Below, piece by piece: positions 7,476-35,947 of a stretch of DNA of 64,000 bases. Under the pieces are notes generated by a model. The model worked only from the letters and a program-made list of their open reading frames with translations, did not search any database and was not told the DNA's origin. How positions within the stretch are numbered: position 1 is the stretch's first letter; every line of letters starts with the position of its first letter. The position numbers and the translations under genes are program-made. The DNA comes from a virus: the IMG/VR virus record IMGVR_UViG_3300028394_000057, positions 1 to 64,000 of that record; one strand, given 5' to 3'.

Positions 7476-8224
7476 TGGCAACAGCAAAAGCAAAAATTTC
7501 AATGTCAAATGCACAAAGTGGGTATCCTATAAAATATATTATTTTCAGGTTTCAGTCATCAGCAATAACAAATGCTGAAAGTATTGAAATGGTTACAATG
7601 AGAATAAATTCTGATGATTATAGAATTATGATATTAAAAGGAACCAACACTGCAACAAATACAAACAATAATAAATTAAAGATTCAAAAAAAAGTTGATA
7701 ATACTTACATAACGGTTACAGATGCTAGTGTTTATACTTTAAATTCGCAAACACCAACAGGCTTTTTTGAATATAAAGCAGGTGCTGGTCAATGGGCAAC
7801 TGTAGGAATAAAATTTCCAGAAAAACCAGCCGCAGCGGATTCATATTTTCAAATTAATTCTAATCCAAACTGTAGTTTTACTTTGGCTGGATTTGCATAC
7901 TACGCTTCTGAAAATAATGAACAAAAACAATATTACACATTCAATACTTGGGGTAATGTAGATGACTTGCAATGGTATGCATATAGCAACACATCTCCTC
8001 AAACTTGGCAAAATGTTCATTATTCAGTAATAGACAGCAGGGCAATTGATAGCATTCAAACTCTATTTAATACATTTACTGGAAATGATGCAATTAATCC
8101 AACACCCCCAAGTAATATTACAACTGATACAACTGATACAAATTTACTAAATCTTGCTATAAGTCCTGAATTTAAAATATATATAGATGTCAAAAAAACA
8201 ATAATTACACAAACCCCTGTATAA
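7475..8224 (+). CDS. Hypothetical protein, probably structural
   Basis: 249-aa ORF coupled (TAATG) to the upstream gene. Confidence 0.55.
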   Translation: MATAKAKISMSNAQSGYPIKYIIFRFQSSAITNAESIEMVTMRINSDDYRIMILKGTNTATNTNNNKLKIQKKVDNTYITVTDASVYTLNSQTPTGFFEYKAGAGQWATVGIKFPEKPAAADSYFQINSNPNCSFTLAGFAYYASENNEQKQYYTFNTWGNVDDLQWYAYSNTSPQTWQNVHYSVIDSRAIDSIQTLFNTFTGNDAINPTPPSNITTDTTDTNLLNLAISPEFKIYIDVKKTIITQTPV

Positions 8225-16822: not shown

Positions 16823-17539
16823 ATGCCTACTAATATATATGATACAAAATACATTTACCTTATTGATGGAACAGAGTTAGAGGTTAGTCCATTAAAGATT
16901 AAATATTTAAAAGAATTTATGGAAGTATTTGAACCAATAAAAAATACTAAAAATGATGATGAGTCTATTAAAATACTTATTCATTGTATGAAAATAGCGA
17001 TGAAACAATATTATCCTAAAATTAAAACAATTGAAGATGTTGAAGATAGTATGGATTTGCCAACAATTTATAAAGTTTTAGAAATTTCTGCTGGAATTAA
17101 AATGGGTCAGCCTACAGATAGTAGTATAGACAATAGTGTACAACAAATACCAGTAGCACCAACAGATAATGGTTCTTGGAAAACACTAGATTTGGCTAAA
17201 CTAGAAGCAGAAATTTTTGTTCTTGGAATATGGAAAAACTTTGATGAACTAGAATCAAACATATGTATGCCAGAATTAATGGCTATTCTTGAATCAAAAA
17301 GAGAATTGGATTATAATGAAAAGAAATTTCTTGCCGCTATGCAAGGTGTAGACCTTGATGAAGCCAGCGGTAAAAAAGAAGAAGACCCTTGGGAAGCAAT
17401 GAAAGCCAGGGTCGCAGCAAAAACTAGCGGTGTTGGTAATGGAGACCCTAATGATATAACAGCATTACAAGGAATAAAAGCACAGCAAACAGGATTTGGT
17501 ATAGGTATGGGTCTTGATTATGAAGTTGTTTCAAAATAG
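16823..17539 (+). CDS. Tail assembly chaperone, long (GT-like) form
   Basis: Between major tail and TMP genes; N-terminal ~95 aa homologous to the next ORF. Confidence 0.7.
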   Translation: MPTNIYDTKYIYLIDGTELEVSPLKIKYLKEFMEVFEPIKNTKNDDESIKILIHCMKIAMKQYYPKIKTIEDVEDSMDLPTIYKVLEISAGIKMGQPTDSSIDNSVQQIPVAPTDNGSWKTLDLAKLEAEIFVLGIWKNFDELESNICMPELMAILESKRELDYNEKKFLAAMQGVDLDEASGKKEEDPWEAMKARVAAKTSGVGNGDPNDITALQGIKAQQTGFGIGMGLDYEVVSK

Positions 17540-17581
17540 ATTGTGTTATGCTATAATTAATAAGAGCCTTAAGGAGGATTC

Positions 17582-17905
17582 ATGTCTACAACAATTAACG
17601 AAGCAAGAACTGTAGAACTACTGGACGGAACAAGTATTACTGTTCGTCCACTTAAAATCTCTCTTCTACGCCCTTTTATGACAAAGTTTGAGGGTATTGC
17701 AGAAGTAGCAGATAGCAATGATAAATCAATGAGTTTGCTCATTGAATGTGTGCAGATTGCTTTTCAGCAATTTGCTCCAGAACTAGCCAAGGATGCAAAG
17801 GCTCTAGAAGAACTTTTGGACCTACCAACCGTATACAAGATTGTTGAAGAAGCATCTGGTATTAAACTTAGTGAAGCCTCACTAATGGGTGGTTTAATCG
17901 GCTAA
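17582..17905 (+). CDS. Tail assembly chaperone, short (G-like) form
   Basis: Directly upstream of TMP; strong SD AAGGAGG; paralog of the previous gene's N-terminus. Confidence 0.75.
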   Translation: MSTTINEARTVELLDGTSITVRPLKISLLRPFMTKFEGIAEVADSNDKSMSLLIECVQIAFQQFAPELAKDAKALEELLDLPTVYKIVEEASGIKLSEASLMGGLIG

Positions 17906-17923: not shown

Positions 17924-20900
17924 ATGGCTGATATCAATTCCAATATAAAAGTTAATATAGATACGTCAGACGCTCTGGCACAACTAAAACTTTTACAGCA
18001 ACAGATATCAGCCTTTCAGCAAGCAATGCGAAATGCAGGAGCACAAAATGCTGCCGCTGCTGCTGCAATGCAGCAAAATCTTATAACCTCAATTAATGCT
18101 ACTGGAAAATTCAGAGCAAACGTTCAAACAATAAAAACAAGTGCAGAATCATTTACAGAATCTTTAGAAAAGAATAAATTTTCTATTGGAGAATACTTTA
18201 GATATGCTGGCGGTGCTTCAAAAACTTTCGGTAAATTGTTTAAATCAGAGTATGCAACTATAACTCAGGTAGCAAAAGAACGAGTAAAAGAACTACAAAC
18301 TCAATATATCAAACTTGGTCGTGATGCCACTGGCGCTATGAAGGCTATTGCTGTTAAGCCGCTATCACTTGACATGAATAATCTTGCAACTAAAACACAG
18401 TTAGCAGCACAAAAACAACAATTGTTTAATCAGTTAATGAAACAAGGTTCTACAAGTCTTCTAAATTTTGGTAAAAATACTCAATGGGCTGGTCGCCAAC
18501 TTATGGTTGGTTTTACAATTCCATTAACTATGTTAGGTTCTGCCGCTGCTAAAGCATACATGCAAATTGAAGCAGCATCTGTAAAATTTAGACGTGTTTA
18601 TGGTGACATGAATACAACTACAGAAGAAGCCAATAAGATGGTTAGGTCTGTACAAGGTCTTGCAAATGAATTTACAAAGTATGGTGTTGCAGTTGCAGAT
18701 ACTATGGATATGGCTGCCCAGGCAGCCGCTATGGGTAAAACTGGTGCAGACCTTATTGCACAAATAAATAATGCTGCAAAACTTTCTATCTTAGGTGGGG
18801 TAGACCAAACAAAGGCTTTAGAAACTACTATTAGTCTTACAAATGCTTTTGGAGTTGCAGCAGAAGATTTAGGTAAAAATATTGATTTCCTAAACGCAGT
18901 GGAAAACCAAACTACACTTAGTATCGATGATTTAACTACTGCTATTCCAAAGGCTGCCCCTGTTGTTAAACAACTTGGTGGAGATGTAAAAGATTTGGCA
19001 TTCTTTATGACAGCAATGAAAGAAGGTGGAATTAACGCATCTGAAGGTGCTAACGCAATTAAATCTGGTTTGGCATCATTAATTAATCCATCAGAAAAAG
19101 CATCAAAATTTCTTCAAGGATTTGGCATTAATGTTAAGGGTATTGTTGAAGCAGATAAAGGTAATCTAAAGAAAACAGTTGTTGATTTTGCTAAAGCACT
19201 AGACACTCTTGACCCACTAAACCGTGCTCGTGCTATTGAACAAATGTTTGGAAAGTTCCAATTTTCCAGACTTTCAACATTGTTCCAAAACGTAATTGCC
19301 GAAGGTAGCCAAGCATCTCAAGTAGCAGAATTATCTAAAAACTCAGCAGAAGAATTAGCAATCTTATCAGAACGAGAAATGAAAAAGATTTCAGATTCTC
19401 CAATGTTTAAGTTTCAAAAATCTATTCAAGACATGCAAGCCAAACTTGCACCTGTTGGCGAAGCATTCTTAAAGGCTGTCACACCAATCATTGAATTTGT
19501 TAGCAAAATACTAGATGGTTTTAATAGTATGGGCGAAGGTGCCAAAAACTTTGTTTCAATGCTAGTGTTGGCTGTTGCTGGTATCGGTCCTGTATTGCTT
19601 ATGACATTTGGTTTGATTGCAAACGGTGTAGCAAATATTATGAAACTATTTACAAATATGAAGGGTTTCATTAATAAGACAACAAAGCCATCAGATATTC
19701 TTGGTGAACAAACTAGTTATATGACTACAGAACAGTTGAAGGGTGCAACAGTTGCAGCATCTCTTGACCAAGCACATGCCAAACTTCGTCAAACATTTAC
19801 CTCTGAAAAAGCAGCATTAGATGAATTAACTAGGTCATATAGACAAGCAGTAGAAGCCCAACAGCAATATTCTGGTGTTCCAGGAATACCAACAGGAAAT
19901 CCAAATGCTGTTCCTAAAAGATATGCTAATGGTGTTTCTATGGTTCCTGGTCCAAGAGGTGCAGGAGATATTATTCCAGCCTTGCTGTCTCCAGGTGAAG
20001 CAGTTATACCAGCCAAACATGCACAAAAATATGCTCCAGTAATTGCTGGTATGGTTTCTGGTAATCTTCCAGGATTTGAAACTGGAACTACTGGTGTTGG
20101 TATTCGTCAAAGCACAATTGGACCACTTACTCAAAAACAAACCGAAGGAATTTTAAGAACTGGTAAAACACTTAAAGAAATTAGCGATGAAGTTTATGCT
20201 GGACCATATGGAGCAGTTCCTCCAGAACACTATGTAAGACAGGTTGAGCCAACTAGTGGGCACTCATTCCCTGCATTCCAAGTTGGTGGAATTTATGAAA
20301 AGGCTGATGGTAGTCAAGTATTTGTAAAACCACAAATGGATTTAACCTCAGCACTAGCAGAAGTTCGTGGTACTCAAATTGCAAGAGACGCACATCAATT
20401 AACAACACCTATGCAAAAAATTGTTACAATGATGGACCCAACAGACCCAGAAGGTATGCGTAAATTTATTGCTTTAGAATCACCACTAAATGAACAAATT
20501 GCTAAAATTTCTACATCATTTACAAAGGGACAATATTTTAAACAACTAGTTGCTTCTTTACTTCGTGGAGATAAAGACCTTGGTATTGGAAATCTTGGCG
20601 GAGATATCCTTGCTGATGTTGGTACTGCAGGTGTATTCCAAACAGCATCTGGTAAGCGTAAACTTGGCGGTAGCATTAATTCAATGGAAGAGCAAGCCAT
20701 CATTAATTTGCTTGGTGTAAAGGGCGGTGCTAAGAGATTCTTTGCTGAATCAACCTCAGATATTGCTAAGAACATGTCATCTGCTGAATATGATGCAACA
20801 ATGAAAGCAGAAATTCAAGCAGTAATGCCAAGGCTTCAAGCCACCATTGCTGGTTTTGGAAATCTTTCACCAGAAGAAAAAGCAGCATACGCAAATATGC

Positions 20901-23900
20901 AGCAAAGACTTCAAGCAGGTATGAGTGTTGATTGGGGTAAATATCAGGTTATGCATTCTGCTGTTCCTTCAAAAAAGTATGCTATGGGTGGTATGGTTCC
21001 AGGATATTTTGATGGAAAAGATAATGTTAAAAAAGAATCTGATTATACAACAGAAGAACTTTATAAACTATTAAACATTCAAGAAACACATGCTTTTGGT
21101 GAAATGAATATTAAAGACCCAAGAGTTCAAGCACAACTGCAAAAACAATTTAAAGAATCTACTCCAGAAGACTTTAATAAATTTAAAGTTCTTAGTAATC
21201 TTACTATTAGTTTGCCAGGTAAATTAAATCAATTAATTAAAGAAACTAGTAACGGTGTAAGCGGAACAATGTTTGGTCAAGCCTACAATGCTTTGCGTGG
21301 TAAATTAAGTAAAACTGCAAAAATGTCTGGTATTAAAAATCTATCAGATTCTCAATCTCTTGAAGATATTATTGGAACAAAATTTGCAGGAGAACCATTA
21401 ATTAAAGATTCAATATTTGCAAGAATAGTAGAGCAAAATATTAACGAACAAACTGCAAACACCTCTAGTATTGGTGCTGCAGCAAACTTAATTTGGGAAA
21501 GAACAAAACAAGTTGGTACAGTTAGACCTAAACGTGATGGTTTAGATGCACCTAGATGGAACGATTTGATTCGAACAATGTTGCAAAATGATGAACTTGT
21601 TTTGGTTCCAGGAAGTGAAAAAGGATTTCCAGTTGCAAATACTCCATTTGGTGGTCGTTTTGGAAGAATCAAAGCAGATGGTATTGGCTCAAGTAAGACT
21701 GCTGAAGGACGTGCTCTTCGTAAACTAGCACAAGATGCAGCAAATGCATGGGCTAGGTCAGGCAATAAAACAACACCTTTGCCTAGTGTACAAGATAATA
21801 ATGGAAATATAGTTCCATTAACTTGGAGAGATAATAGTGCAAAACCAGGAAGTTTTTCAACAGATGATTTTGCTGCCTATGACGATACAAGTAAAAAATA
21901 TGCATCAGACCTATCTTTTGCCCCTGGAGGATTTGATGTTCTTAAAAATCTTAAATTCTTTGCTGATGGTGGAATGGTTCCAGGTTATTCTGGAGGAACA
22001 GATAATATAGTTAAAAAACTATCTCTAAAAGATTTAGATTTTGCTGGAATGAAAAAGGATAAACTTGGTGCAGTGCCAGGTGGCTACAGAATAATTGATG
22101 GTAAAAAATATTATGTAAAAAATACTAAATCATCTACAGACGCATCAATAGAACTAATTATGTCTGAATTAAACCAGGCTATGCAAAATCCTGGTGCCCA
22201 TAAAATGAACATGTTTGGCGAAGGATTGGTTGGGAGTAAGTTTGTTCCAGGTTTAAAGAACACAATGGATTCCACTATGACTAATTGGTTGCAATCACAA
22301 CCAAACAAATTCTCAGCAGCAGAAACACTTATGGCGGCTGCTAAAGATTTCATTACAAAAGATGCTCCATTTAACGCAATGATTGGAAATGACGATGGTC
22401 ACACAAATAATATACTTTTTAATCCAAAAACTCGCAAATTTGTAAACCTTGACCTTGGGGTTAATTCAGCAAAAGATAAAGGTAAGTCAACAAAATTTAA
22501 TGAAATGGCACAAATTGGAATTCAAAACTTTAAATCTAGAATTATGATGGCTATTAGAACTGTTCTCTCTCCCAAAAAAGCCGATGTTCTTTCAAAAAAA
22601 TATGGAATTGATTTAAATGCATATTCTAAGGGGGATAAATTTTCAAATGAATATGACACATCTCCAGAAATTAGCAAAATGGCTAAACTGCTTGGTTTTG
22701 ATTTATCTAAACCAATATCCGAAAACCCAATTGATTTAAGAACCAACCCTTTTGTTTTGTCACTACTTGCTAAAAATCCAGAACTTGCAGAAATTTTAAA
22801 ACTACAAGTAACAAGTGGTGGAGTAAACCCACAAAGTGCTCTTTCACAAATCTTTAAAACTTTACAAAGTGCAAGCAAAAAACCAATTCTGAAATTTGCT
22901 GATGGTGTATTTTCAGTTCCAGGACCAAAGGGTGCTGGCGATGTAGTTCCTGCTATGCTATCTCCTGGTGAGGCTGTTATTCCTGCTGACCGTGCTGCTC
23001 AACACCGTGGACTAATTAAGGGAATGATTGCTGGTAATTTGCCAGGGTATGCAAAGGGAACTATAATTCCAGGATACGTTCATGGCAAAGATGAAGTTAA
23101 AAGAATACCAGGAATGCCAGCATCCGCAGTTACCGTTACTTCTTTTGATGCTGATAATCAGGCTATGCTTGCAGAACAATCAAAAGTTGTTGCTTTAGAA
23201 GAAGCCTTAGTTGCAAAAAAGACAGATTTAACTCGTTTAACTCGTGAACAAATTGAAGAGCAGATGGCAGTAGAGGATGACATCTACAGACAACTATTAG
23301 AAAAACAAGAAGAACTAAAGATGAAACATGTTCTTACTGAAGATGAAAGAAAGTTGCTAGAGTCAAACAAGCAAATTATGCTTAGAAAAGAAGAAGCCTT
23401 TAAACTTGAAAAGAATGTAATAGAAAAAGAAAAAAGAGGACTGTTTACAAGAAATGCTACGACTGGAAAAGTTCAAGGTCTGATGTATGGTCTTTCTGGA
23501 GCAGCAGGTCTTGCATCAACTGTGCCAGGTGCTGTAGGAGAAAGTGCACAGCAAATGCTTCCAGTTATTGGTGCTGCCACTGCCGCTATGTCTGTTATTC
23601 CTGGCTACGCTGGCATGATTGTTGGAGCAGGTGCAGCATTAGTTACAGCCTACATGCAAGTACAAGAGAGGTTAAACAAGATTAGAGATGAGGCATTGGC
23701 TCTGGGAACTGCTATGGGTTCATCTACAAAGTCTATTGATAAATTTGCGGAATTTGCCAAAACTGTTACTGGTAGTCAGACAATGGATAAACGTAGAGAA
23801 ACTAGTGCTGGCACTTTCTTTAATGTTGTTCAGGGTAAAACAACTTTTGGCGAAGCATATATGCAAGGAGATGCTGGAAAAGCCTTAGTAAAATCAGTTG

Positions 23901-26900
23901 GAGAATCAATTAAGGGTGGAGGATTAACTCAAGCAAAATCTATGATTGTAAATCAATTATCTACTGCTATTGCCAGCGGAGCAATGTCTCCTGCTCAGGC
24001 TAGAAGTATTGCATCAAATCTAGGTGCTCAACTAGGAGACATGTCTTTAGGTATTGAGGTTGCAGGAAAAATAACTGACCTTGTAGGTCCAAAAGGAGAA
24101 GACTTAAAGAAAGAACCTTTGCAAATAAGACTGCGTCTTGTTGCTGACTCTATGGAGCAGTTTAAGAAGCAAGCAGAAATTTCTAATGCTAACGCAACTG
24201 ATGCCGCAAAGAATGCAGGAACATCTGGTGCAGGTATTGGTATAGGTGCTGGTGCTGGTTTAGCGGCTGGCTTTGGTGTTGCTGGTGCAGGAAGCATAGT
24301 AGCAAATCTTGGCTCTACAGGAATCTTGGCAGGAATGGCTCTTGGAACTACAGCAGGTTCTGTAGTTCCAGTTATTGGAACTATTGCTGGAGCACTTGTA
24401 GGATTCTCGATTGCTGCAGTTCAACTGCAAGGAGATATTGCAAAAAATGCAGGGTATTTACAAGCAAGTCTAGGAAGTGCCTTATCTGTTCAACAACAAA
24501 TGGTTGACTCTTTAACAGTAGATTATGAAAAGAGAATAGCGTCAGCAAAGGCTGCTGGGGATACAGCAGAAGCCACTAGACTACAAAATCAGTACCTTGC
24601 TGACCAAGCAGAGTTATTAGACTTTAATAAAAAACAAACTCAAGAAATGTATGGTATTTTAAATGAACAAAGTACTGGCTTAGGGTTTATGTTAAATGCA
24701 CAAGTTGCAAACTTGGATACAGCAAGAGAAGGTTTGAAGAAAGCATTTGAAGGAACTGGGCAAGAGGTTCAGGCTAAACTTGCACAAGAACAGATTGATG
24801 CTATGTCAGGTTCTCTTGCACAAAAGACTATGCTTATGTCAGCAGTTGGTCAAAAACAAATAGGGCTTAACCAAATTGGAGTTGCACAAAAAGCGTTTGG
24901 TTCTGACCAAGCAGGAGCAGATACTCTGCAAACGCTTATGGAAAATAGCCCAACCGAACTAAACAGAACTCTTGGTCTAGCAGGAAACATGGCTGAAACA
25001 GAGCAAAAGAAATTTGTAATAGACATGAGTCTAAAAGACCCTATTCAAGCAAAGATAATGAATGATGCTGTAGAACTAGCACAAAAAACAACTGGCGTTT
25101 TCTTTGGAGAAAAGAAAACAGCGGAAGCAATTATGAGATTTGCTGTAGAAAATCCAGAAAAGATGCTAGAGTTTCAAGAAAACGTAACAGATTTAAAAAA
25201 TATACAAGGAACAACTTTTGATATTACAGTTGCACAAAAAATTCTTGGTCCAGATTTAGCAAAGGCTTTGGGAGAAAAAAGCGTTGGAGCATATTTTAAA
25301 AAGTATAACAAGCAAAACAAGATTGTGTTCTTATCTGAATTCCAGCAGGTAATGACAATGCTTGCAAAGGGTGATGAAGACATGCTTGCATCTTGGAGAT
25401 TGTGGAATGCTGAAAATGGTGGCAAAAAAACAATGGCTGATTACGCTGCCTACCAGTCTGACAGAACAGTTACTAGTCAGGGAGTCGACAATACAATAGT
25501 TCCTGGCACTGGTACCACTGGCGGTAGTGGTAATGGTCCAGAGAGTTCTTGGCTAGACCCTTTTGTTAAAAATATAAGGGATGCTGGAACATCGACTCAA
25601 AAATTAACAACTGGTTTTAATGATTCAGCAGCAGCACTTACAAAATTTGCGAATAAAGTACCAAATTTTATTGGTTTATTTACACAACTTAAGAAAGCAG
25701 GGGCTAGTGCAAAAATTATCGAGGCTGCACTTGGCGGTGATGAAGCCACAACAGCAAAATTGATTGATACAAAAACTGGACAATTAAAAGCAGGGGCTAA
25801 AAAAATTCTTGATGGAATTAGCAAAGCCATTAGAGAACAAAAAATGGTAGACTGGATGCTCCTTACAGGGGCAGGAAAAAGACAAAAGTATAACGATATG
25901 TATCAAGCAAACCTGGATGTTCTTAAAATTGATGAAGATAAAATTAATAAAACTTATGATGATAGAATTAAAGCATTAGATGAAATAAATACTCTTCAAG
26001 AAAAAAATACTGCTCAACAACAAAGCACTTTAACTATTGCAGATGCCTTATCTAAAGGAGACATTGCAGGGGCTGCTCGTGCCGCATTAGAAAAAACAAA
26101 ACAAGACACAGCATTTGCTATTGAACAACAAAAGATAAATCTAGAAAATGCTAGACAAACAGAACTTGGAAAACTTACAACAAATATTAATGGTGTTCAA
26201 ATGACAAGAGTAGAAATAGAAGAAAAGATTAGAATTAATGCAGAAAAAATTACTAAAAGTAAAGCAGAAGAATTAGAATCTGAGATTCGTATTGGTAAAT
26301 TAGCAGAAAAACGATTTAAAGCATACAAACCAGTTCCAGGTGTGTCCACTGGTGGCGGTGGTGGTGGCGGTGGCGGCAAAGCAGATACAAAACCCACACC
26401 AGATACAAAACCCACACCAGATACTAAGCCCACACCAGATACAAAACCCACACTAGATAATAAGCCCACACCAGATACAAAACCTAGTGGCGTAGTTGGT
26501 GACATTACAAGTTCTCCACAAGGCAAAGCATTTACAGCAGCACTCAAAGGTGCTCAGGATGTTACACCTGGTGCTTTAAAGGCTGCTCAGGATTATGCTA
26601 CTGCTAAGAAAAATGCAGGGGCATCAATGAGCGATGCTGCTGCAGCAAAGAAATTTGGTGGAAAAAATACTGCAGCATTTAAAACATGGAAAGCAAATCA
26701 AACAAAACTTGCTAAAGCATTAACAGCAGCACAGGATTACGGTATTGTCGATAGTTCTGGTAACGTTCTTACAGCAGACCAAGTTACTAATGCAAGTATT
26801 TATCAAAGATATGCAATGCTTAGTTCAAAGAGTGGTCAAGCAGATGCAGCAGAATCTTTAAAAGGTATTCCAGCAGAAATTGCTTCTAGGGCAAAATTGA

Positions 26901-27682
26901 TTAAAAATTCAAATAAAGATTTTGCAGCAGACAAAACAAAACTTGATGGAATGAAGAAAACATTTGAAAAAGCAGGTGGTTTATTGTATATGCTTCCAGG
27001 ATACTATCAAACATGGTTAAATACCTCAGATGCTTTAAGACCTACAACTCCTTTTGGAAAACTTATTGCAAAAGGTGCTAAACCAGAAGAACTTATAAAT
27101 CAAGCAACAAAAATGGCAACGAAGTTTGGTGAAATAGATAATTATAGAAAAGCACTTACAAGTGCTGGGTATACAGACTCGTTGCTTTTTCAGGCTAAAC
27201 TATTTGATAGTAATTATGGTCGTGATGGACAAACTTTAAAGCAAACATCCGATTTTGCATCTGGTCAAATGTTTAAGCCACATAAAGCCTATACAGGAAC
27301 AAATATTGGATATGGTAAAAACCAAATACTTCCTGACGCAGAAAACATGCTTAGATTTGGTAATCAATATTACGCTATGGGTGGTATGGTTTATGCAAAC
27401 AAGGGGCTTAAGGTTGCAGCAAGTAAGTATGCTCTTGGAACTGATACTATTCCTGCTATGCTTACCCCAGGAGAATTTGTAATTAAAAAATCAGCAGTGG
27501 ATTCAATTGGATTAAATAAACTTAATTCTATAAACTCTGGAACATTGTCATCTAATTCAGTGTATAATTATAGTATCAATGTTAATGTTAAATCAGATGC
27601 AAATGTAAACCAAATTGCAGATACTGTTATTAGACAAATTAAACAAATTGATTCACAAAGATTAAGGAGTGTCAGTATATAA
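17924..27682 (+). CDS. Tape measure protein with inserted kinase-like cargo domains
   Basis: 3252 aa, Ala/Gly/Gln-rich and helical; TP901-type core (AVENQT..., EGANAIKSGL); C-terminal GTDTIPAMLTPGEFVI motif; synteny. Confidence 0.92.
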   Translation: MADINSNIKVNIDTSDALAQLKLLQQQISAFQQAMRNAGAQNAAAAAAMQQNLITSINATGKFRANVQTIKTSAESFTESLEKNKFSIGEYFRYAGGASKTFGKLFKSEYATITQVAKERVKELQTQYIKLGRDATGAMKAIAVKPLSLDMNNLATKTQLAAQKQQLFNQLMKQGSTSLLNFGKNTQWAGRQLMVGFTIPLTMLGSAAAKAYMQIEAASVKFRRVYGDMNTTTEEANKMVRSVQGLANEFTKYGVAVADTMDMAAQAAAMGKTGADLIAQINNAAKLSILGGVDQTKALETTISLTNAFGVAAEDLGKNIDFLNAVENQTTLSIDDLTTAIPKAAPVVKQLGGDVKDLAFFMTAMKEGGINASEGANAIKSGLASLINPSEKASKFLQGFGINVKGIVEADKGNLKKTVVDFAKALDTLDPLNRARAIEQMFGKFQFSRLSTLFQNVIAEGSQASQVAELSKNSAEELAILSEREMKKISDSPMFKFQKSIQDMQAKLAPVGEAFLKAVTPIIEFVSKILDGFNSMGEGAKNFVSMLVLAVAGIGPVLLMTFGLIANGVANIMKLFTNMKGFINKTTKPSDILGEQTSYMTTEQLKGATVAASLDQAHAKLRQTFTSEKAALDELTRSYRQAVEAQQQYSGVPGIPTGNPNAVPKRYANGVSMVPGPRGAGDIIPALLSPGEAVIPAKHAQKYAPVIAGMVSGNLPGFETGTTGVGIRQSTIGPLTQKQTEGILRTGKTLKEISDEVYAGPYGAVPPEHYVRQVEPTSGHSFPAFQVGGIYEKADGSQVFVKPQMDLTSALAEVRGTQIARDAHQLTTPMQKIVTMMDPTDPEGMRKFIALESPLNEQIAKISTSFTKGQYFKQLVASLLRGDKDLGIGNLGGDILADVGTAGVFQTASGKRKLGGSINSMEEQAIINLLGVKGGAKRFFAESTSDIAKNMSSAEYDATMKAEIQAVMPRLQATIAGFGNLSPEEKAAYANMQQRLQAGMSVDWGKYQVMHSAVPSKKYAMGGMVPGYFDGKDNVKKESDYTTEELYKLLNIQETHAFGEMNIKDPRVQAQLQKQFKESTPEDFNKFKVLSNLTISLPGKLNQLIKETSNGVSGTMFGQAYNALRGKLSKTAKMSGIKNLSDSQSLEDIIGTKFAGEPLIKDSIFARIVEQNINEQTANTSSIGAAANLIWERTKQVGTVRPKRDGLDAPRWNDLIRTMLQNDELVLVPGSEKGFPVANTPFGGRFGRIKADGIGSSKTAEGRALRKLAQDAANAWARSGNKTTPLPSVQDNNGNIVPLTWRDNSAKPGSFSTDDFAAYDDTSKKYASDLSFAPGGFDVLKNLKFFADGGMVPGYSGGTDNIVKKLSLKDLDFAGMKKDKLGAVPGGYRIIDGKKYYVKNTKSSTDASIELIMSELNQAMQNPGAHKMNMFGEGLVGSKFVPGLKNTMDSTMTNWLQSQPNKFSAAETLMAAAKDFITKDAPFNAMIGNDDGHTNNILFNPKTRKFVNLDLGVNSAKDKGKSTKFNEMAQIGIQNFKSRIMMAIRTVLSPKKADVLSKKYGIDLNAYSKGDKFSNEYDTSPEISKMAKLLGFDLSKPISENPIDLRTNPFVLSLLAKNPELAEILKLQVTSGGVNPQSALSQIFKTLQSASKKPILKFADGVFSVPGPKGAGDVVPAMLSPGEAVIPADRAAQHRGLIKGMIAGNLPGYAKGTIIPGYVHGKDEVKRIPGMPASAVTVTSFDADNQAMLAEQSKVVALEEALVAKKTDLTRLTREQIEEQMAVEDDIYRQLLEKQEELKMKHVLTEDERKLLESNKQIMLRKEEAFKLEKNVIEKEKRGLFTRNATTGKVQGLMYGLSGAAGLASTVPGAVGESAQQMLPVIGAATAAMSVIPGYAGMIVGAGAALVTAYMQVQERLNKIRDEALALGTAMGSSTKSIDKFAEFAKTVTGSQTMDKRRETSAGTFFNVVQGKTTFGEAYMQGDAGKALVKSVGESIKGGGLTQAKSMIVNQLSTAIASGAMSPAQARSIASNLGAQLGDMSLGIEVAGKITDLVGPKGEDLKKEPLQIRLRLVADSMEQFKKQAEISNANATDAAKNAGTSGAGIGIGAGAGLAAGFGVAGAGSIVANLGSTGILAGMALGTTAGSVVPVIGTIAGALVGFSIAAVQLQGDIAKNAGYLQASLGSALSVQQQMVDSLTVDYEKRIASAKAAGDTAEATRLQNQYLADQAELLDFNKKQTQEMYGILNEQSTGLGFMLNAQVANLDTAREGLKKAFEGTGQEVQAKLAQEQIDAMSGSLAQKTMLMSAVGQKQIGLNQIGVAQKAFGSDQAGADTLQTLMENSPTELNRTLGLAGNMAETEQKKFVIDMSLKDPIQAKIMNDAVELAQKTTGVFFGEKKTAEAIMRFAVENPEKMLEFQENVTDLKNIQGTTFDITVAQKILGPDLAKALGEKSVGAYFKKYNKQNKIVFLSEFQQVMTMLAKGDEDMLASWRLWNAENGGKKTMADYAAYQSDRTVTSQGVDNTIVPGTGTTGGSGNGPESSWLDPFVKNIRDAGTSTQKLTTGFNDSAAALTKFANKVPNFIGLFTQLKKAGASAKIIEAALGGDEATTAKLIDTKTGQLKAGAKKILDGISKAIREQKMVDWMLLTGAGKRQKYNDMYQANLDVLKIDEDKINKTYDDRIKALDEINTLQEKNTAQQQSTLTIADALSKGDIAGAARAALEKTKQDTAFAIEQQKINLENARQTELGKLTTNINGVQMTRVEIEEKIRINAEKITKSKAEELESEIRIGKLAEKRFKAYKPVPGVSTGGGGGGGGGKADTKPTPDTKPTPDTKPTPDTKPTLDNKPTPDTKPSGVVGDITSSPQGKAFTAALKGAQDVTPGALKAAQDYATAKKNAGASMSDAAAAKKFGGKNTAAFKTWKANQTKLAKALTAAQDYGIVDSSGNVLTADQVTNASIYQRYAMLSSKSGQADAAESLKGIPAEIASRAKLIKNSNKDFAADKTKLDGMKKTFEKAGGLLYMLPGYYQTWLNTSDALRPTTPFGKLIAKGAKPEELINQATKMATKFGEIDNYRKALTSAGYTDSLLFQAKLFDSNYGRDGQTLKQTSDFASGQMFKPHKAYTGTNIGYGKNQILPDAENMLRFGNQYYAMGGMVYANKGLKVAASKYALGTDTIPAMLTPGEFVIKKSAVDSIGLNKLNSINSGTLSSNSVYNYSINVNVKSDANVNQIADTVIRQIKQIDSQRLRSVSI
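26383..26484 (+). repeat. 18-bp tandem repeat (~5.5 copies) encoding PDTKPT, preceded by poly-Gly
   Basis: agatacaaaacccacacc repeated. Confidence 0.9.
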
Positions 27683-28308
27683 TGGCTACTAGTACATATA
27701 TGCAAGGTCGTAAAGAATATGCTAGACCTCAAGGAATTTTATTTTCTAAAAATTCTGGAACTTTGGCAGCAAATGGAACTTATGTTCCAAATGGAAATGA
27801 ATTTGGTGAATCTGGAACATTGGATGCTAATGCAGATTTTTTAATATTGTCAGATGATAATAGAGGACCAATAGATTTTAAAACCACTAGGATTGAAAAT
27901 CGTAAAAGAATGATTAATGGTCGTATGCGTTCATATCATGTTGCAGACAAGTTAACTATTAATCTTTCTTGGAATATGCTTCCATCACGTTCTTATTTTG
28001 GAAATCCAAATTTTAACGCAACTACTGGAGTGTCAGATAAAACAGAGTCATGTACAAGTGATGGCGGTGCTGGAGGAGTAGAAATTCTTAGATGGTATGA
28101 AAATAACCCAGGTCCATTTTGGATGTTTCTTTCGTATGATAAATACAGTAATTTTGATAATGATGGCAATGTAAATAGATATACTCACTTAGGAGAATAC
28201 AGTCAAGTAGTTGAAGTTTATATATCTAGTTTTGATTATTCCGTTGAAAAACGTGGTGCACGAACAGATGATTTTTGGAATATATCTATATCGTTGGAAG
28301 AGGTTTAA
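27682..28308 (+). CDS. Distal tail (Dit-like) minor tail protein
   Basis: Follows TMP; RMINGRMRSYHVADK...WNISISLEEV. Confidence 0.65.
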   Translation: MATSTYMQGRKEYARPQGILFSKNSGTLAANGTYVPNGNEFGESGTLDANADFLILSDDNRGPIDFKTTRIENRKRMINGRMRSYHVADKLTINLSWNMLPSRSYFGNPNFNATTGVSDKTESCTSDGGAGGVEILRWYENNPGPFWMFLSYDKYSNFDNDGNVNRYTHLGEYSQVVEVYISSFDYSVEKRGARTDDFWNISISLEEV

Positions 28309-28311
28309 AAA

Positions 28312-31300
28312 ATGCTTAAAACATATTCAAACGGCACTGAAATTTTTGATTTAAAAAATCATTTGCTAGATTCGCAAACAATAAAAACTCAATCAATTGT
28401 TTTGGGTGAATGGAATTTAAACATAGCAGATAATATAGAAGAGATAGGAAACTATAGATATAGACCTAGTAATTCTGCAAGTTCTTTTTATACGTTGCCA
28501 TCTACATTTACAAAAGAAACATCATCAACTACATCTCCAAAATATTATGGTGCTACATTTGCAGATGTAGTTATAGATGGTGGGTATGATATTGATAGTA
28601 ATCCAATAAGCATTTTAACTGAAAATGAAAAAATAAAATTTTATTATTCTTTAGAAGATTGTTTTAATAGGTTTCGACCACGTTCTGGAATTAATAAAGC
28701 GGTATTTCGTAAAGGATATTATTCACATTTTACTGACCTAAATATGGCAAAAAGACCAAGATATTATGTAGCAGATAAAACAAATATTTTTAAATATTGG
28801 ACATCCTATAGGACAAACGATAATCTTATACTTGGTATATCAAAAGATGCAGCACCATCATCTGGTGGATATTATATAGATGATGCTGTTCCTTTTGTTA
28901 AATATAAAAACAATATATATGCAAATAGGATTATTGTAAAAATGCAAACTCATGTAGGTAGTGCTGCAGACAAAACTTTATCTAATGACCCTTTTACTGG
29001 CGATGCAAATAAAAAAGTTCCTAAAATTTGGAGTATAGAAGTTTTAAGAAAAAATAATTCTGGAGGAACCAATTGGACTACAGAAAAAGTTTTGACTAGT
29101 TATACAATTAATAATGATGGATATGTAGAATTAGCGTATGGACCACAAATACCATCAGAATATCAAGATATTTTTACTTATGTTGCAACTATAGCAAATT
29201 CTTCTGCTTTGCCAACAAGTTCAACAAATGGGTATGCCTATCTTGTAGAATCAGACAATACATATCGTATATGGCTAAGTTCTACTTCATCTTGGGTAAC
29301 ATTTTCTGCAAGTTCTAGTTGGCAAACAATAGAATCTTTTTCAAATAGAACAATTCCATATGCAACAGATTTAGTTGGAGATGAAACAAGTCTTACTACT
29401 TTTAATTTGGGAGATAACTATACCAGATATAGAGAATTTGATGCTATTCAGGGCATTAGGGTAGCAGTAAAAACAATGAAAAATATCAACACTTCTTTTG
29501 ATTTAATTGAAATTTCTCCAAGACTTGTAGTTGACCTATCAGATAAAACATTAAATTTTTCAATTGAAAAAAAAGCATCCGACTTATCTGTAAGTGGATT
29601 ACCATTAGGAGACATCCTTGCTTCTACTGGCAAATTATCATTATTTGATTACGACCAGGCATTTGATAAAGACAATGCAAACAGTATATTGAAAGATATA
29701 ACGTTTAAAAATTTGCAATTTAAATTTTATCAAAAAATTATTGATGTTAATGGTTTAGATTATTTGGTTCCAATTAAAACAATGTATTCAGATGGATTTC
29801 CAGATTTAAGTTATTCTGATAGAACATTAGATATTACATTAAGAGATTTGTTTTTTTATTTTGAATCAGTAACTGCACCTACCGTTTTTGTTAAAAATAA
29901 AACATTAAGTTATATAATTTGTTTATTACTAGATTCTATTGGTTATTCTAATTATATATTTAAAAGAACTTTAAATGAAAAAGAAAAAATTATTCCAGAT
30001 TTTTTTATTGCACCAGATAAAACAGTAGCACAAATTTTACAAGATTTAGCAAAATCAACACAAGCATCAATGTTTTTTGATGAAGAAAATAATTTTGTTG
30101 TTATGAGTAAAAATTATATGATGCCAACATACACATCAGATATTGAAAATGGCAGAGTAACAGACATAACTCTTTCTGCTTCTACAGACCAAGGACAAAA
30201 TGACAGTCCTCTAGAATCTGAAACTTCTATACGCTCTAATGCCTCAATTGCAAATATTTTAGATATTAAAATAGAAAATCACGATGTTTATAATGATGGA
30301 AAAATTATTTATAATTCAAAGTATATTCAAAAAAATGTTTCTAATCTAGAGCAGGTATCGGCATTAGATTCAGATAAAACATACACATATCAACCAGTTT
30401 TACTTTGGGAATTGTCAACAAAAAGTGACACAAGTAATGTAGAAAAAAATACAAATGATGGATTTGCTTTGTCTGCTGTAACGTTAAAAAAGGCTATTGT
30501 TGAAGCATCACCAAGTATTTCTACAACTACTGGAAAAATTGTAAACAATACAATAGATATTGGAGAAAGCGTCTATTGGTTAAGTAATTATTCTGGATAT
30601 TTGTTTGCTAATGGTGAAATTATTAAATATGATGCAAAAGAATATTCCGTAGTAGGTGTTGATGGACTAAGCAACGTTTGGATTTCTAGTGCAAGCGATA
30701 AAGATTATTATTTTTCAAAAGTTCCATATAATGGAAAAATGTATCCTACTGGACTTATAAAAATTTATACAGAAGTTTCTTATACAGCAGATGGAGCATT
30801 GGCTACTGTTGTAAAACATGGTAGAGGACAATTTGGAACAAAAATTATTGGTCATTCTGCAGGGATACCCCAAGACTCTCCTTGGTTTACAAATACTAGC
30901 GGAGCATCAAACGATTTTGAATATTTAAGTGGCGTTAAAACATTTCCTCCAATGACTACTGAAACTACTCCTGTAGAAATTCCAACAATTTTTGGTTCCC
31001 CTGCTGCACCTGCTGGAAAAACTGTTCCATATACTTTAGCAGGTAGTAATATATATTACGAAAATGATTCAAATTTTAATACAAAAAATGGAATTATAAG
31101 AAATTTCTTATCATCAACATATCCGTCAATAAACAAATACAACAAAAGCACAGATTTACCGTTGGGAGCAGTTCAAGCATCTGCTCTTACAATTTTTGGT
31201 AATAAGAATAATGTAAGAACTTTGCCAATTAATTTTTTGTCATATTCTTATAAAGATTTAGGAAAATGTAATGATACATTTGGAACAAGAATGAGAATAA

Positions 31301-32937
31301 TGGGGCAATTGACATCAAATAAAAGTACAATTCAGAATGCAACTGGCTCTATGTCATTTTTTAAAGGAAATAGTGAAACCACCTCTGCTCTTAATGTTTA
31401 TGGTGGTTCTGGCGGTATTGCAATTTGGTTAAATCCTACAGCAAATTCTGGATATTATTTTGAGATAGCAGCATTGTCAACATACGAATCTTTAAATGAT
31501 TCAAATATGTGGTTTTATAAATTAAAAAGAAAAACTGGAAATGGACTTAAAACTAATTCAGTGAGTGGCTCATTAACTCAAGTAAATGCAGACTTTACCG
31601 ATGATAGAACTCAAAATATATTGAAAGCAACAAGTGTTGGTATTATAAATACTAATACTCAATTTAGTGCAACTCTTGCTGTTGGCGATAGAGTTAAAAT
31701 ATCTGGACAAACAAAAACAGAAAAGAATGGATTTTATTTAGTAACTAAATTAGGAACCTCAACTACTAAATGGGAAATGGAACGAGACGAACTTGCAATA
31801 CCAGAAGTATTGTGGAAAGGAAAAACTAGAATAGTCGTAGATGCTACTGGTACTGTTGGTTTGTCAAAAACTAATCCAAAAGATGAACTTCCAATATATG
31901 ATTTAAAAGTAAAATGGGAAACCATTGATAATGGGGCAATAAGATTTTCTTTATATTTAAATGATATTTTGGTTGGGGTATGCGTAGACACTGTTCCAGA
32001 AGAAAAAGGAACTCATGTTGGTCTTTTTGTAAGAGGTACTTCAAAATGTATGTTTGAACATGTTTATGCACTTACTTCTGATTATCGACAAAAATCTCCA
32101 ACTGCAACTTATTCTAAAATATTTGGAATAGAAAACATAAAAATATCAAATACTTTTAATGCTTATAGGCTTAATGAAACAATTATTACAGATTATTTAT
32201 CTAGTCAAACTACGACAGGTTTTGAAAATGATTTGTATTTTGAAGAATTTGGAACAATTTTGCGTGAGTGTGCTTATTTTAATATTCGTTATGATAAAGC
32301 ATATCCTGCTTTACTTGCAAAGATTGCCAATAATCAAAATCCATTATTAGGTTATTATGTATCTAATTTTAAATCAAGTCCATATGGTGCAGAATTTATG
32401 GTATTTAATACTACAGATTCTGTGTTACCAATGGATTCGTCAAGTGGAAATTATTTAAGAATTACTGGAGTTACCTTTACAGCAGAATCAAACAACGAAT
32501 TAACAGTTGATGATTATTTTAATAAAGCAACTGATTATTCACACACTCAGTTTACAAGTTTACCAACCAATGCAACAAATTCAAAAAATGATTTAATTTT
32601 AATAAAAAATAGCAGACTTACTTATGGTAAAAAAGATTTTTCATTGGAAGCACCTTATATTCAGGATAGGGATACTGCATACGAAATGATGGATTGGATG
32701 ATTCAAAAAATTAAAAAACCAAAAATTGCAATAGGTGTAGAAGTTTTTGGATTACCAATTGTTCAACTTGGAGACATTATTAAAATAGATTATTATATAT
32801 CAAAAATAAAAGATGGAATCACTATAACGGACAATGTTCAAATTCCAACAAATTCAAGATTTGTTGTTTATGCTATTACTCATTCAGTAGATGCAAATGG
32901 TCCGTCACAAACATTATATTTAAGCGAGGTATCATAA
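28312..32937 (+). CDS. Large tail-tip/hub protein
   Basis: 1541 aa; hub-like segments (ILQDLAKSTQASMFFDEENNFVV; GLPIVQLGDIIKIDY). Confidence 0.7.
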   Translation: MLKTYSNGTEIFDLKNHLLDSQTIKTQSIVLGEWNLNIADNIEEIGNYRYRPSNSASSFYTLPSTFTKETSSTTSPKYYGATFADVVIDGGYDIDSNPISILTENEKIKFYYSLEDCFNRFRPRSGINKAVFRKGYYSHFTDLNMAKRPRYYVADKTNIFKYWTSYRTNDNLILGISKDAAPSSGGYYIDDAVPFVKYKNNIYANRIIVKMQTHVGSAADKTLSNDPFTGDANKKVPKIWSIEVLRKNNSGGTNWTTEKVLTSYTINNDGYVELAYGPQIPSEYQDIFTYVATIANSSALPTSSTNGYAYLVESDNTYRIWLSSTSSWVTFSASSSWQTIESFSNRTIPYATDLVGDETSLTTFNLGDNYTRYREFDAIQGIRVAVKTMKNINTSFDLIEISPRLVVDLSDKTLNFSIEKKASDLSVSGLPLGDILASTGKLSLFDYDQAFDKDNANSILKDITFKNLQFKFYQKIIDVNGLDYLVPIKTMYSDGFPDLSYSDRTLDITLRDLFFYFESVTAPTVFVKNKTLSYIICLLLDSIGYSNYIFKRTLNEKEKIIPDFFIAPDKTVAQILQDLAKSTQASMFFDEENNFVVMSKNYMMPTYTSDIENGRVTDITLSASTDQGQNDSPLESETSIRSNASIANILDIKIENHDVYNDGKIIYNSKYIQKNVSNLEQVSALDSDKTYTYQPVLLWELSTKSDTSNVEKNTNDGFALSAVTLKKAIVEASPSISTTTGKIVNNTIDIGESVYWLSNYSGYLFANGEIIKYDAKEYSVVGVDGLSNVWISSASDKDYYFSKVPYNGKMYPTGLIKIYTEVSYTADGALATVVKHGRGQFGTKIIGHSAGIPQDSPWFTNTSGASNDFEYLSGVKTFPPMTTETTPVEIPTIFGSPAAPAGKTVPYTLAGSNIYYENDSNFNTKNGIIRNFLSSTYPSINKYNKSTDLPLGAVQASALTIFGNKNNVRTLPINFLSYSYKDLGKCNDTFGTRMRIMGQLTSNKSTIQNATGSMSFFKGNSETTSALNVYGGSGGIAIWLNPTANSGYYFEIAALSTYESLNDSNMWFYKLKRKTGNGLKTNSVSGSLTQVNADFTDDRTQNILKATSVGIINTNTQFSATLAVGDRVKISGQTKTEKNGFYLVTKLGTSTTKWEMERDELAIPEVLWKGKTRIVVDATGTVGLSKTNPKDELPIYDLKVKWETIDNGAIRFSLYLNDILVGVCVDTVPEEKGTHVGLFVRGTSKCMFEHVYALTSDYRQKSPTATYSKIFGIENIKISNTFNAYRLNETIITDYLSSQTTTGFENDLYFEEFGTILRECAYFNIRYDKAYPALLAKIANNQNPLLGYYVSNFKSSPYGAEFMVFNTTDSVLPMDSSSGNYLRITGVTFTAESNNELTVDDYFNKATDYSHTQFTSLPTNATNSKNDLILIKNSRLTYGKKDFSLEAPYIQDRDTAYEMMDWMIQKIKKPKIAIGVEVFGLPIVQLGDIIKIDYYISKIKDGITITDNVQIPTNSRFVVYAITHSVDANGPSQTLYLSEVS

Positions 32938-33503
32938 TGTTAAATGGAGCAAAACCAGTAACATCAAATAATATTTCAACTATTACTGCAACAGCGGCTA
33001 AAGCAACCACTACAAAACCAGCAGTTAAAATTGCAACATCTAATTTATTTATAGATACATTAAATGTTCCAGACTATAAATCGATAGAAGATTTAATATT
33101 TGAAACATTAAACTCTGGAGAAATACTTGATTATGGTAATACACAGGCTACAGTTGTTGGTAGTGTTGGAACAGGAATAAATGGTTTTCAAGATGATAAT
33201 TTAAATTTGATAGATACACGTTTATATCCAGACTCAAACATAGATGAAGAAATTCCTTATGACGGCAATGGACCAAACACTACAGATGGTTCTACAGGTG
33301 GTTCTACAGGTGGCATCGTTCCAATTGATTCAAATATAAACTATTACTATCCAATAGTTGGGAATGGAATAGGTGGAGAGTATGTTTATTTTAATACTAA
33401 TAATAACTTAGTAATTGATTTAATAAATGTAAGGGAGGGGCAGTATGTAGAGATTGAGTTTTGGAAATACGAAACAGAACTTAATGATACAATATATTCA
33501 TAA
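32937..33503 (+). CDS. Minor tail protein (putative)
   Basis: Coupled ORF in the tail-tip cluster. Confidence 0.5.
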   Translation: MLNGAKPVTSNNISTITATAAKATTTKPAVKIATSNLFIDTLNVPDYKSIEDLIFETLNSGEILDYGNTQATVVGSVGTGINGFQDDNLNLIDTRLYPDSNIDEEIPYDGNGPNTTDGSTGGSTGGIVPIDSNINYYYPIVGNGIGGEYVYFNTNNNLVIDLINVREGQYVEIEFWKYETELNDTIYS

Positions 33504-34882
33504 TGATTACTTCAAAAGGACAAGAACTTATAACAAAAAAACTAGCATCTAACACACCATATGCAACACATATTGCATTAGGTTGCGGTGCAAGACCAAG
33601 AAACAAATTTAGCGTAAGCATATCATCAACAGAATCATCTACTGCTAATGCAACATCTGGGTATGCAAAAATAATTACATCTACAAACCACGATTTTCAG
33701 GTGGGGGATTATGTAAAAATATATAATACAGGTGGTAGTAATATTGCTAGTGCATATCTTGGAACTTGGTTAATAACAAGCATAACCTCGAACAGTTTTA
33801 AATTTGCTATTGGTAATAATACAGTAAGAGCATTGGCATCTCCAAGTCCATCTCCAAAAGTAATTTTAGATTTTTCAAATAAAACATCTTTAGATTTAGA
33901 AATGTTTAGAATTCCAATTACAACTTCAACTAGTTTTAGCGAAGATGGCATTAATAAAATTTTGTTTTCAGCAGATTTGCCAACAACCGAAAGGTATGAA
34001 ATTAGTGAAATTGGAATATTTTCACAGGTATCAGACTCAACATCACAAGTTAATAATAAAGTTTTGTATAGTTTTTTAAATACAGAAAGTTGGAAATATC
34101 ATTCTTCAACAGCAATAGAAGGAATTTTATTTAAAACTACTTTAATAAATACAGCATTGACTACAAATGATATAGTAATAACAGATAAAGCATTTCAAGC
34201 AAATGCAAATAATCTTTTATTTAATAATTCTATAAGAACTTTAAGGCAAGAACGACCAAGATTTTATAATAATTCTTATTTTTTATATGGGGACACCTCT
34301 AATTTAGTAGTTAATGGTTCGGGAACTAGCATGAGATTAACTCCAACTTCAACAACAAATCATATAGAAATAATTGATAATTCTCTTTCCCAATTAGATA
34401 AAGCATCATCAAATGATGAAATAAAGTTTGCACTATCAATAGTTAATAAAACACAAAGTGCCGCTGACCCAGATGAAATTAGAGTTTTGCTAGAATTTGC
34501 AACTATAGACGGTACTGGAAGTGCTACATCTGAATATAAATATAAAAGATTTCATGCAAAATTAACAAGCACTGAACAAGATTTTTCCAAAAACAGGTAC
34601 ATTGTTTTTACTAAAAAATTAAGTGAAATAGATAGTTCTGAAAGTTTTTCATGGGAACAAATAAAATTTGTAAAAATATATTCATCAATTATTAAAAGTA
34701 GTGCAATAAGCGGAGATTACCTTGCAGCATTTGATGCAATAACTTTTAATTTAACAACAAGTACAAATCCACTCTATGGTTTAAGTGCATATACTATAGT
34801 AAAAACTAGCGATAATTCAACTATTCCTAAAGAAGAAAATTCTCAACAATCAGTAGAATTTAAGTTTGGAATTGGAACTTAA
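33503..34882 (+). CDS. Minor tail/baseplate protein
   Basis: MITSKGQELI...HIALGCG...EISEIGIF pattern of tail-fibre-proximal proteins. Confidence 0.6.
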   Translation: MITSKGQELITKKLASNTPYATHIALGCGARPRNKFSVSISSTESSTANATSGYAKIITSTNHDFQVGDYVKIYNTGGSNIASAYLGTWLITSITSNSFKFAIGNNTVRALASPSPSPKVILDFSNKTSLDLEMFRIPITTSTSFSEDGINKILFSADLPTTERYEISEIGIFSQVSDSTSQVNNKVLYSFLNTESWKYHSSTAIEGILFKTTLINTALTTNDIVITDKAFQANANNLLFNNSIRTLRQERPRFYNNSYFLYGDTSNLVVNGSGTSMRLTPTSTTNHIEIIDNSLSQLDKASSNDEIKFALSIVNKTQSAADPDEIRVLLEFATIDGTGSATSEYKYKRFHAKLTSTEQDFSKNRYIVFTKKLSEIDSSESFSWEQIKFVKIYSSIIKSSAISGDYLAAFDAITFNLTTSTNPLYGLSAYTIVKTSDNSTIPKEENSQQSVEFKFGIGT

Positions 34883-34883
34883 A

Positions 34884-35944: not shown

Positions 35945-35947
35945 AGA

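Follow-up and report, generated by a model that had tools for sequence, protein, structure and literature searches.

Tape measure proteins (TMPs) are usually viewed as rulers and channel formers that carry at most a wall-degrading domain. In siphophages the TMP occupies the tail tube, with the C-terminus located in the hub, and is ejected before the DNA. This report concerns the TMP gene of an uncultured virus, IMG/VR record IMGVR_UViG_3300028394_000057 (91,335 bp, rated complete by CheckV). Positions 1 to 64,000 of this record were analyzed; this stretch of 64,000 nucleotides (nt) is referred to as the window, and nucleotide coordinates without another prefix are those of the window. The TMP contains three segments that are predicted to fold as separate domains, two of them with kinase folds. 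They lie between copies of a short peptide joint, and related phages gain, lose, replace and reorder their inserted cassettes at these joints.

Several described systems resemble this protein. The TMP of Thermus phage P23-45, gp96, has 5,002 amino acids (aa) and is fused to a virion RNA polymerase, which transcribes the pre-early genes (Chaban et al. 2024, PMC10770324). The T5 protein pb2 undergoes a cut that separates its hydrophobic stretch from its enzyme domain, and expulsion into the periplasm, possibly after refolding, has been proposed for pb2C. Lambda gpH is converted to gpH* and gpHC by loss of a C-terminal piece of ~14 kDa from a Gly-rich region; the site is unmapped and the protease is unknown. 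Polyvalent proteins are large virion-borne strings of multiple enzymes, including kinases, for which injection together with the DNA and possible processing have been predicted (Iyer et al. 2017, PMC5512222).

The TMP described here is a variant of two kinds already known, TMPs with embedded enzymes and injected polyvalent proteins. Like P23-45 gp96, it is a giant TMP with a putative cytoplasmic enzyme that does not degrade the wall; the P23-45 enzyme is used right after injection. In contrast to the TMP here, P23-45 gp96 has a single N-terminal enzyme and no array, its enzyme has no sequence relation to the present cargo, and a repeated joint peptide and cassette exchange, both present here, are not described for it. 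T5 pb2 and the TMPs of mycobacteriophages and Gordonia phages also hold an enzyme domain inside the TMP, but in those proteins the enzymes are peptidoglycan hydrolases, one or two per protein, whose site of action is the envelope, whereas kinase folds are found here. Unlike the wall-degrading TMPs, relatives of the present protein add phosphatases and many unassigned domains, up to at least nine per protein, and exchange them between close relatives. With polyvalent proteins it shares the occurrence of several unrelated effector-type domains on one virion-associated polypeptide. The carrier contexts of polyvalent proteins (MuF, N4-type RNAP, conjugative elements) are not those of this locus, where the carrier is a TMP, and TMPs have 0 occurrences in the survey of these proteins (PMC5512222). 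The kinases of polyvalent proteins lack a C-terminal subdomain, and a common joint peptide is not described in that survey. Lambda gpH has the sequence FATGG...EPAGIVHRGEFVF...YATGG near its C-terminus, which is weakly like the joint and the C-terminal module of the present TMP (E 0.17); unlike this TMP, gpH has a single copy of the module and no cargo. Literature searches on TMP polyproteins, TMP cargo or TMP kinases found nothing to the point.

The tape measure gene and its joints

The features of the gene are as follows.

17924-27682, plus strand: TMP gene (P0001), a single open frame of 3252 aa
17924-19900, plus strand: N-terminal TMP core, aa 1-659, family F0, kept in 190/190 long relatives
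19919-20089, plus strand: long linker 1, aa 666-722, YAxG + GxGDxxPAxLSPGEAVIPA... + LPGF
20132-20971, plus strand: cargo domain S1, aa ~737-1016, predicted atypical protein-kinase fold
20978-21007, plus strand: short linker 1, YAMGGMVPGY, aa 1019-1028
21008-21958, plus strand: cargo domain S2, aa 1029-1345, predicted folded alpha/beta domain
21959-22000, plus strand: short linker 2, FADGGMVPGYSGGT, aa 1346-1359, swap point with the closest relatives
22001-22894, plus strand: cargo domain S3, aa 1360-1657, predicted HipA/CtkA/PI3K-like kinase fold
22895-23077, plus strand: long linker 2, aa 1658-1708, then YAKGTIIPGY, aa 1709-1718
23078-27370, plus strand: distal TMP body, aa 1719-3149, family F1 in 148 relatives
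27371-27679, plus strand: C-terminal module, YAMGGMV + GTDTIPAMLTPGEFVI, aa 3150-3210, and conserved tail, aa 3211-3252

The protein belongs to the TP901 type of TMPs, as PF10145 matches aa 247-443 with 87 bits against a cutoff of 33.2. PHROG tape measure families match it as well, with E values down to 3e-100 and essentially only over the first ~700 residues, and the position of the gene between tail chaperone-like and distal tail/hub genes is that of a TMP gene. The N-terminal core has 27-31% identity to Streptomyces and Gordonia phage TMPs. According to a hydropathy scan, this core contains a hydrophobic stretch at aa 540-572 (nt 19541-19639), and the distal body contains hydrophobic Gly/Ala-rich stretches at aa 1889-1909 and 2133-2168; the cargo block is flanked by these stretches. 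An earlier, sequence-only reading of this DNA had proposed that about 1050 aa of non-TMP-like sequence interrupt the protein. The searches agree with this, as PF10145 is the only Pfam match in the TMP and lies outside the insert, and the PHROG TMP profiles end at about residue 700.

Every copy of the repeated motif noted in that reading is present at the place given for it. The motif YANGVSMVPGPRGAGDIIPALLSPGEAVIPA...GNLPGF begins at aa 667 (nt 19922), YAMGGMVPGY at aa 1019 (nt 20978), FADGGMVPGY at aa 1346 (nt 21959), FADGVFSVPGPKGAGDVVPAMLSPGEAVIPA...GNLPGY at aa 1658 (nt 22895), YAMGGMV at aa 3150 (nt 27371) and GTDTIPAMLTPGEFVI at aa 3172 (nt 27437). As proposed, the insert has a long copy on either side, and BLAST aligns these two (aa 666-722 with 1657-1713) over 57 aa with 60% identity (E 5e-23). 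A fourth short copy, YAKGTIIPGY at aa 1709, directly follows long linker 2 and matches short linker 1 and 9 further residues (E 5e-5). The motif recurs at the C-terminus, at aa 3150-3187. The patterns [FY]A.GG.V, [FY]A.G.{3,4}PG[FY] and PA.L[ST]PGE.VI occur three times each in the protein. Their means in shuffled sequences are 0.01, 0.0004 and 0, respectively, and the observed counts were reached in none of 5000 shuffles.

Comparison of the copies suggests that the two long joints are the short joint form plus an insert of ~45 aa that copies the conserved C-terminal module of TMPs. The profile of the long linkers finds one to five copies per TMP in 205 relatives, most often three. Because this profile also matches the protein's own C-terminal module (aa 3157-3210, 42 bits), the linker is not restricted to the insert, and the internal long linkers are copies of a conserved module that is sited ~40-130 aa before the C-terminus of many TMPs. 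The two long-linker copies have 68% nucleotide identity, and 18 of their 34 identical residues are encoded by different codons. This pattern points to conservation of the joint copies as peptide, not as DNA. The idea that the joints persist solely as substrates for DNA recombination was rejected, since the copies in the gene share no long identical DNA tract and differ at synonymous sites.

Two AlphaFold2 models, of aa 660-1030 and aa 1029-1657, were calculated with alignments from related loci. Joints of the form [FYL]AxGG..PG[FY] are predicted to be intrinsically unstructured. The predicted local distance difference test (pLDDT) values are 34-65, mostly below 60, in linker 1 and 28-50 in the joint between S2 and S3.

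Cargo domains and their exchange among relatives

The sequence-only reading had divided the insert into three globular domains. In the models, the three segments between the linkers are predicted to fold independently and to be joined by low-confidence linkers. The pLDDT is ~90 in S1, mostly 76-96 in S2, with a decrease to 58-64 at its C-terminal end, and mostly 65-96 in S3. The predicted template modeling score of the joint S2 and S3 model is 0.49, as expected for two free domains.

S1 has a predicted bilobal kinase fold, and its 50 best VIA matches are all kinase folds. The matches are to CotH (5jda, Z 11.7, 214 aligned residues, root-mean-square deviation 4.0), MavQ (Z 10.3), PI4KIIa (Z 10.0), CtkA (Z 9.4) and HipA (Z 9.0), and Foldseek agrees weakly. 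At least 90% of 162 homologues have residues K802, E813, D883, D885, N890 and D898, which sit on the strand, helix and loops of the model as they do in kinases. S1 keeps the complete kinase catalytic set, K/E/D/N/D, and is a predicted enzyme. It has no Pfam match at E values up to 10, and its likeness to the CotH kinase family is at the level of fold only. S1 is present in 178 of the 204 collected TMPs.

S3 has a predicted kinase core of the HipA family fold, with a D-x-H-x-x-N catalytic loop and a D-x-G motif. Its VIA matches are HipA (4pu3, Z 11.5, 216 aligned residues), CtkA (Z 10.9) and E. coli HipA (5k98, Z 10.3). It also matches PI4K and PI3K and many protein kinases, and Foldseek identifies PI3K-gamma (E 5e-4). 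With K1399, E1410, N1489, D1491, H1493, N1496, D1510 and G1512 conserved, S3 also retains a complete kinase catalytic set. In both S1 and S3 the invariant Lys lies in a strand, the Glu in the next helix, and D..N and D.G follow a long helix, as in kinases. The HipA, CtkA, CotH and PI4K atypical kinases thus have the fold and the catalytic residue pattern in common with S1 and S3 (identity to known kinases ~10-13%), but neither domain matches a Pfam family, and S3 is without the N-terminal subdomain of HipA and has no recognized HipB-like partner, although the analysis did not extend to partner genes. For S3, no relevant Pfam match, HipA_C included, was found at E values up to 10, and a sequence search of the PDB gave chance matches only. 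S3 is rare: it occurs in 9 of the 204 TMPs, and a phmmer search of 1.84 billion proteins yielded just 12 representative clusters. Nearly all of these clusters are giant TMP-like proteins, in which S3 is at varied positions, and the others are fragments. No stand-alone S3 protein was found at 166-529 aa.

S2 is present in 57 of the 204 TMPs, with invariant residues H1056, N1102, Q1103, G1111, K1127, E1147, G1151, D1162 and R1201. It has no Pfam match at E values up to 10, a profile search of the PDB was empty, and Atlas recognition remained below threshold. The structure lists (VIA and Foldseek) for the joint S2 and S3 model are filled by kinase matches of S3, so the S2 fold is effectively outside these lists. 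Two BFVD rows carry the name ADP-ribosyltransferase without being attributable to one domain of this model; the label was not adopted for S2, as the helix-rich first half and the invariant residues of S2 gave it no support. The possibility that S1, S2 and S3 are paralogues was also rejected, by BLAST and by local profile-profile comparison (best probability 8.6%). The proposal that the cargo consists of enzymes is supported for S1 and S3, which have predicted enzyme folds with intact catalytic residues; S2 lacks an assigned fold.

Nucleotide and protein searches with the insert against 50,697 phage records found nothing, and the family is known only from metagenomes, in which the insert search identified more than 1,273 TMPs of 2,400-4,000 aa. 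When 190 TMPs were cut at the joints, 84 segment clusters were obtained. In the domain maps cassettes are lost, replaced and reordered, with a shuffled order in distant relatives. Related phages gain, lose, replace and reorder cassettes at the joints: in alignments of related TMPs the identity, number and order of the cargo vary exactly at the linkers, while the flanks are conserved, as the sequence-only reading had anticipated. Its comparison with polymorphic effector systems holds for this exchange of cassettes only.

The clearest exchanges involve three relatives, P0002, P0003 and P0004, in which the junctions were read at the protein level. P0002 is 96% identical over aa 1-1372, then diverges, and homology returns at aa 1648. 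Homology to P0003 and P0004 breaks at aa 1363 and 1362, respectively, and returns at about aa 1657-1658. In all three, identity stops within a few residues after ...PGYxGGT of the joint FFAxGGxVPGYxGGT. The junction, marked by a slash, reads ...FFADGGMVPGYSGGT/DNIVK... in the present TMP and ...FFAAGGMVPGYAGGT/SNVGPTGKPKASVFDIDDT... in P0002, which carries a HAD-IIIB acid phosphatase in place of S3 (Pfam, 47.6 bits, cutoff 27). This HAD cassette has an identical start behind the joints of four relatives that differ in cargo sets and upstream sequence, and the S3 cassette of the relative P0006 begins with the same residues behind a different joint. A further relative, P0008, has ~140 extra aa inserted exactly at short linker 1. 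Five close relatives have five different cargo sets. The largest number of cassettes, at least nine, lies between LAKGGIIPGY-type joints in a TMP of 4,314 aa (L001:8024-20965); these cassettes contain a HAD-IIIB phosphatase (aa 1822-1955, 58 bits) and, as a sub-threshold match, a primase-type zinc finger (aa 2674-2705). End points of homology in the cassette region fall within 15 aa of a joint in 52% of cases, with 26% expected; the sequences are related, and the points are not independent, which makes the p-value unreliable. P0002, P0003 and P0004, 88-96% identical to the present TMP over the first ~1,370 aa, are only ~49-57% identical behind long linker 2. Besides the exchange of single cassettes, the gene is thus also mosaic at a larger scale.

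The joint peptide in other phages and the proposed delivery of the cargo

The C-terminal module matches the TMP C-termini of Clavibacter, Gordonia and Stenotrophomonas phages, and by sequence it is also found in Burkholderia and Pelagibacter phage TMPs and in some cyanophage proteins. Among sequences of solved structures, gp16 of mycobacteriophage Douge has two internal matches, at aa 967 and 1415, with E values of 4e-8 for the long-linker profile and 3e-4 for the profile of the C-terminal module. Only residues 1658-1699 of this protein are resolved in the structure, in which they are bound in the baseplate hub. Gordonia phage Yeezy (KU963249, L086:184-6510), which is cultured, has a TMP of 2109 aa with three strong copies of the long joint, at aa 922-967, 1603-1642 and 1940-1984. 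Its Pfam SLT transglycosylase domain (aa 1511-1601) stops exactly at the second copy, and the 297 aa between the second and third copies have no Pfam match. The presence of the module in Yeezy, Douge and other phage TMPs indicates that the grammar of joints and cassettes predates the present TMP family and takes in the known wall-degrading inserts. In lambda gpH, aa 732-781 weakly match the profile of the C-terminal module (E 0.17); aa 730-790, from gene H (L109:143-2704), read FHFATGG...EPAGIVHRGEFVF...GYATGGYVG. The 14-kDa C-terminal fragment of gpH would start at about aa 711-727, directly before FHFATGG...GEFVF...GYATGG. The core DTxPAMLTPGEFV also occurs in proteins of T4-like Synechococcus and Prochlorococcus phages (e.g. 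S-SM2 7716-7811) annotated as transmembrane protein or lysozyme, so the motif exists outside siphophage TMPs.

These data support the reading of the inserted segments as cassettes and cargo. It is likely that the TMP doubles as a modular enzyme carrier, in which S1, S2 and S3 are arranged as beads on a string between the N-terminal core and the distal body, and the host probably receives from the tail a variable set of enzymes that are already made. As the TMP leaves the tail tube ahead of the DNA, the cargo would enter the host at infection and refold there. S1 and S3, at least, would act in the cytoplasm on host targets, because kinases need ATP. Folded domains of 30-35 kDa in three copies exceed the tube lumen; therefore the cargo may be stored in the tube in a non-native state, unfolded or extended, and refold after ejection, in line with a suggestion made for T5 pb2C. 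The joints might then be cut, as lambda gpH and T5 pb2 are, to free the domains, and this is the weakest-supported step. If the carrier reading is correct, a very large environmental phage family, with more than 1,200 protein clusters, uses its TMP to hold interchangeable enzymes, most of them non-muralytic, whose active sites are intact. This would be a delivery route for ready-made host-takeover or counter-defence proteins, beside capsid-packed internal proteins and polyvalent proteins.

Several points weigh against this reading. S2 is without an assigned fold or family. Z scores of 10-12 at ~10% identity identify a kinase fold and not a substrate, and S1 and S3 could be protein, lipid or sugar kinases. 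The enrichment of homology end points at the joints is only two-fold, and the points come from related sequences and are not independent. Three copies of folded 30-35-kDa domains cannot fit a tube lumen of ~4 nm, and storage in unfolded form is an assumption. The lambda match is weak. Finally, we infer the packaging of the full-length TMP, its cutting and its delivery for a phage that is uncultured.

The alternatives differ mainly in what happens to the joints. The sequence-only reading had seen the linkers as processing or recombination boundaries. In a tentative form of this proposal, the [FYL]AxGG joint, whether or not it carries the GxDxxPAxL[ST]PGExV insert, would be a TMP processing signal such as lies beside the lambda gpH cut. 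Multiplied in the present family, it would make the TMP a polyprotein that frees kinases, phosphatases and other enzymes in the host cytoplasm before phage gene expression, and the set would be re-dealt by recombination at the joints. It is rather doubtful that the joints are true processing sites, where a protease of the phage or the host, or the polyprotein itself, would cut at every [FYL]AxGG to release soluble kinases and other enzymes. The cut in T5 pb2 separates an enzyme domain from the remaining part of the polypeptide, the lambda gpH cut is in a Gly-rich run just before the FATGG...GEFVF...YATGG module, and the present TMP has a joint at the matching place, ~100 aa before the C-terminus, all of which would fit such cutting. 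However, the position of the lambda cut is unmapped, the match to the lambda sequence is weak (E 0.17), and the protease is not known in any of these systems. It is quite possible, on the other hand, that the TMP is the same carrier but its joints are never cut. They would serve as flexible, easily unfolded spacers for threading, the long ones as spare hub-binding or plug modules, and the TMP would remain one polypeptide with its enzymes tethered at the trans-envelope channel. The predicted disorder of the joints is consistent with this, as is the proposal that the P23-45 enzyme acts while associated with the TMP pore, and Pfam scans found no protease domain in the TMP. Yet the strong conservation of GxGDxxPAxL[ST]PGExVI as a peptide exceeds what a plain spacer would need, and the same module adjoins the region in which lambda gpH is cut.

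An improbable alternative is that the inserted domains serve the virion and not host takeover, as length spacers, assembly aids or envelope-penetration devices in which the kinase folds are relics. S1 is nearly universal (178/204) and usually the first cassette, which suggests a core role, and known TMP inserts are mostly wall-degrading enzymes. However, even distant homologues of S1 and S3 have invariant catalytic residues, as would not be expected of relics, and phages with 96% identity elsewhere differ freely in the other cassettes, which is at odds with a structural role. The carrier reading is testable, as the joint peptide occurs in the cultured phages Yeezy and Douge and weakly in lambda, where it provides a concrete candidate for the never-mapped cleavage site of gpH.

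Surroundings of the gene

Upstream of the TMP gene are the gene of an Ig-domain protein, which matches phrog_2175 and is possibly the tail tube protein, and two phrog_10504 genes. The latter are adjacent, at 16823-17905 just 5' of the TMP gene, and the first also matches phrog_10474. They look like a duplicated chaperone-like pair that replaces the usual frameshifted G/GT pair. Downstream are a gene of 208 aa and a minor tail protein of 1541 aa. Within the distal body, nt 26359-26502 contain six copies of an 18-nt tandem repeat that encodes (KPTPDT)n and is preceded by a Gly run.

Other genes of the phage encode a portal, a head protease, a class II ribonucleotide reductase, DnaB and a Pol III alpha subunit. 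A search for the host in genome collections matched contigs of metagenome-assembled genomes binned to Bifidobacterium, Acidimicrobiaceae, Flavobacterium and Methylococcus; these taxa are unrelated, and the matches were set aside as most likely binning noise. The G+C content is 27-31% at window positions 6001-8000 and 28001-36000 and ~37-40% elsewhere, and the second of these low-G+C stretches spans the hub and tail-tip genes 3' of the TMP gene. A PA14-domain protein of 596 aa is encoded at 50178-51968 among replication-side genes, and a block of six minus-strand genes is located at 56068-61334.

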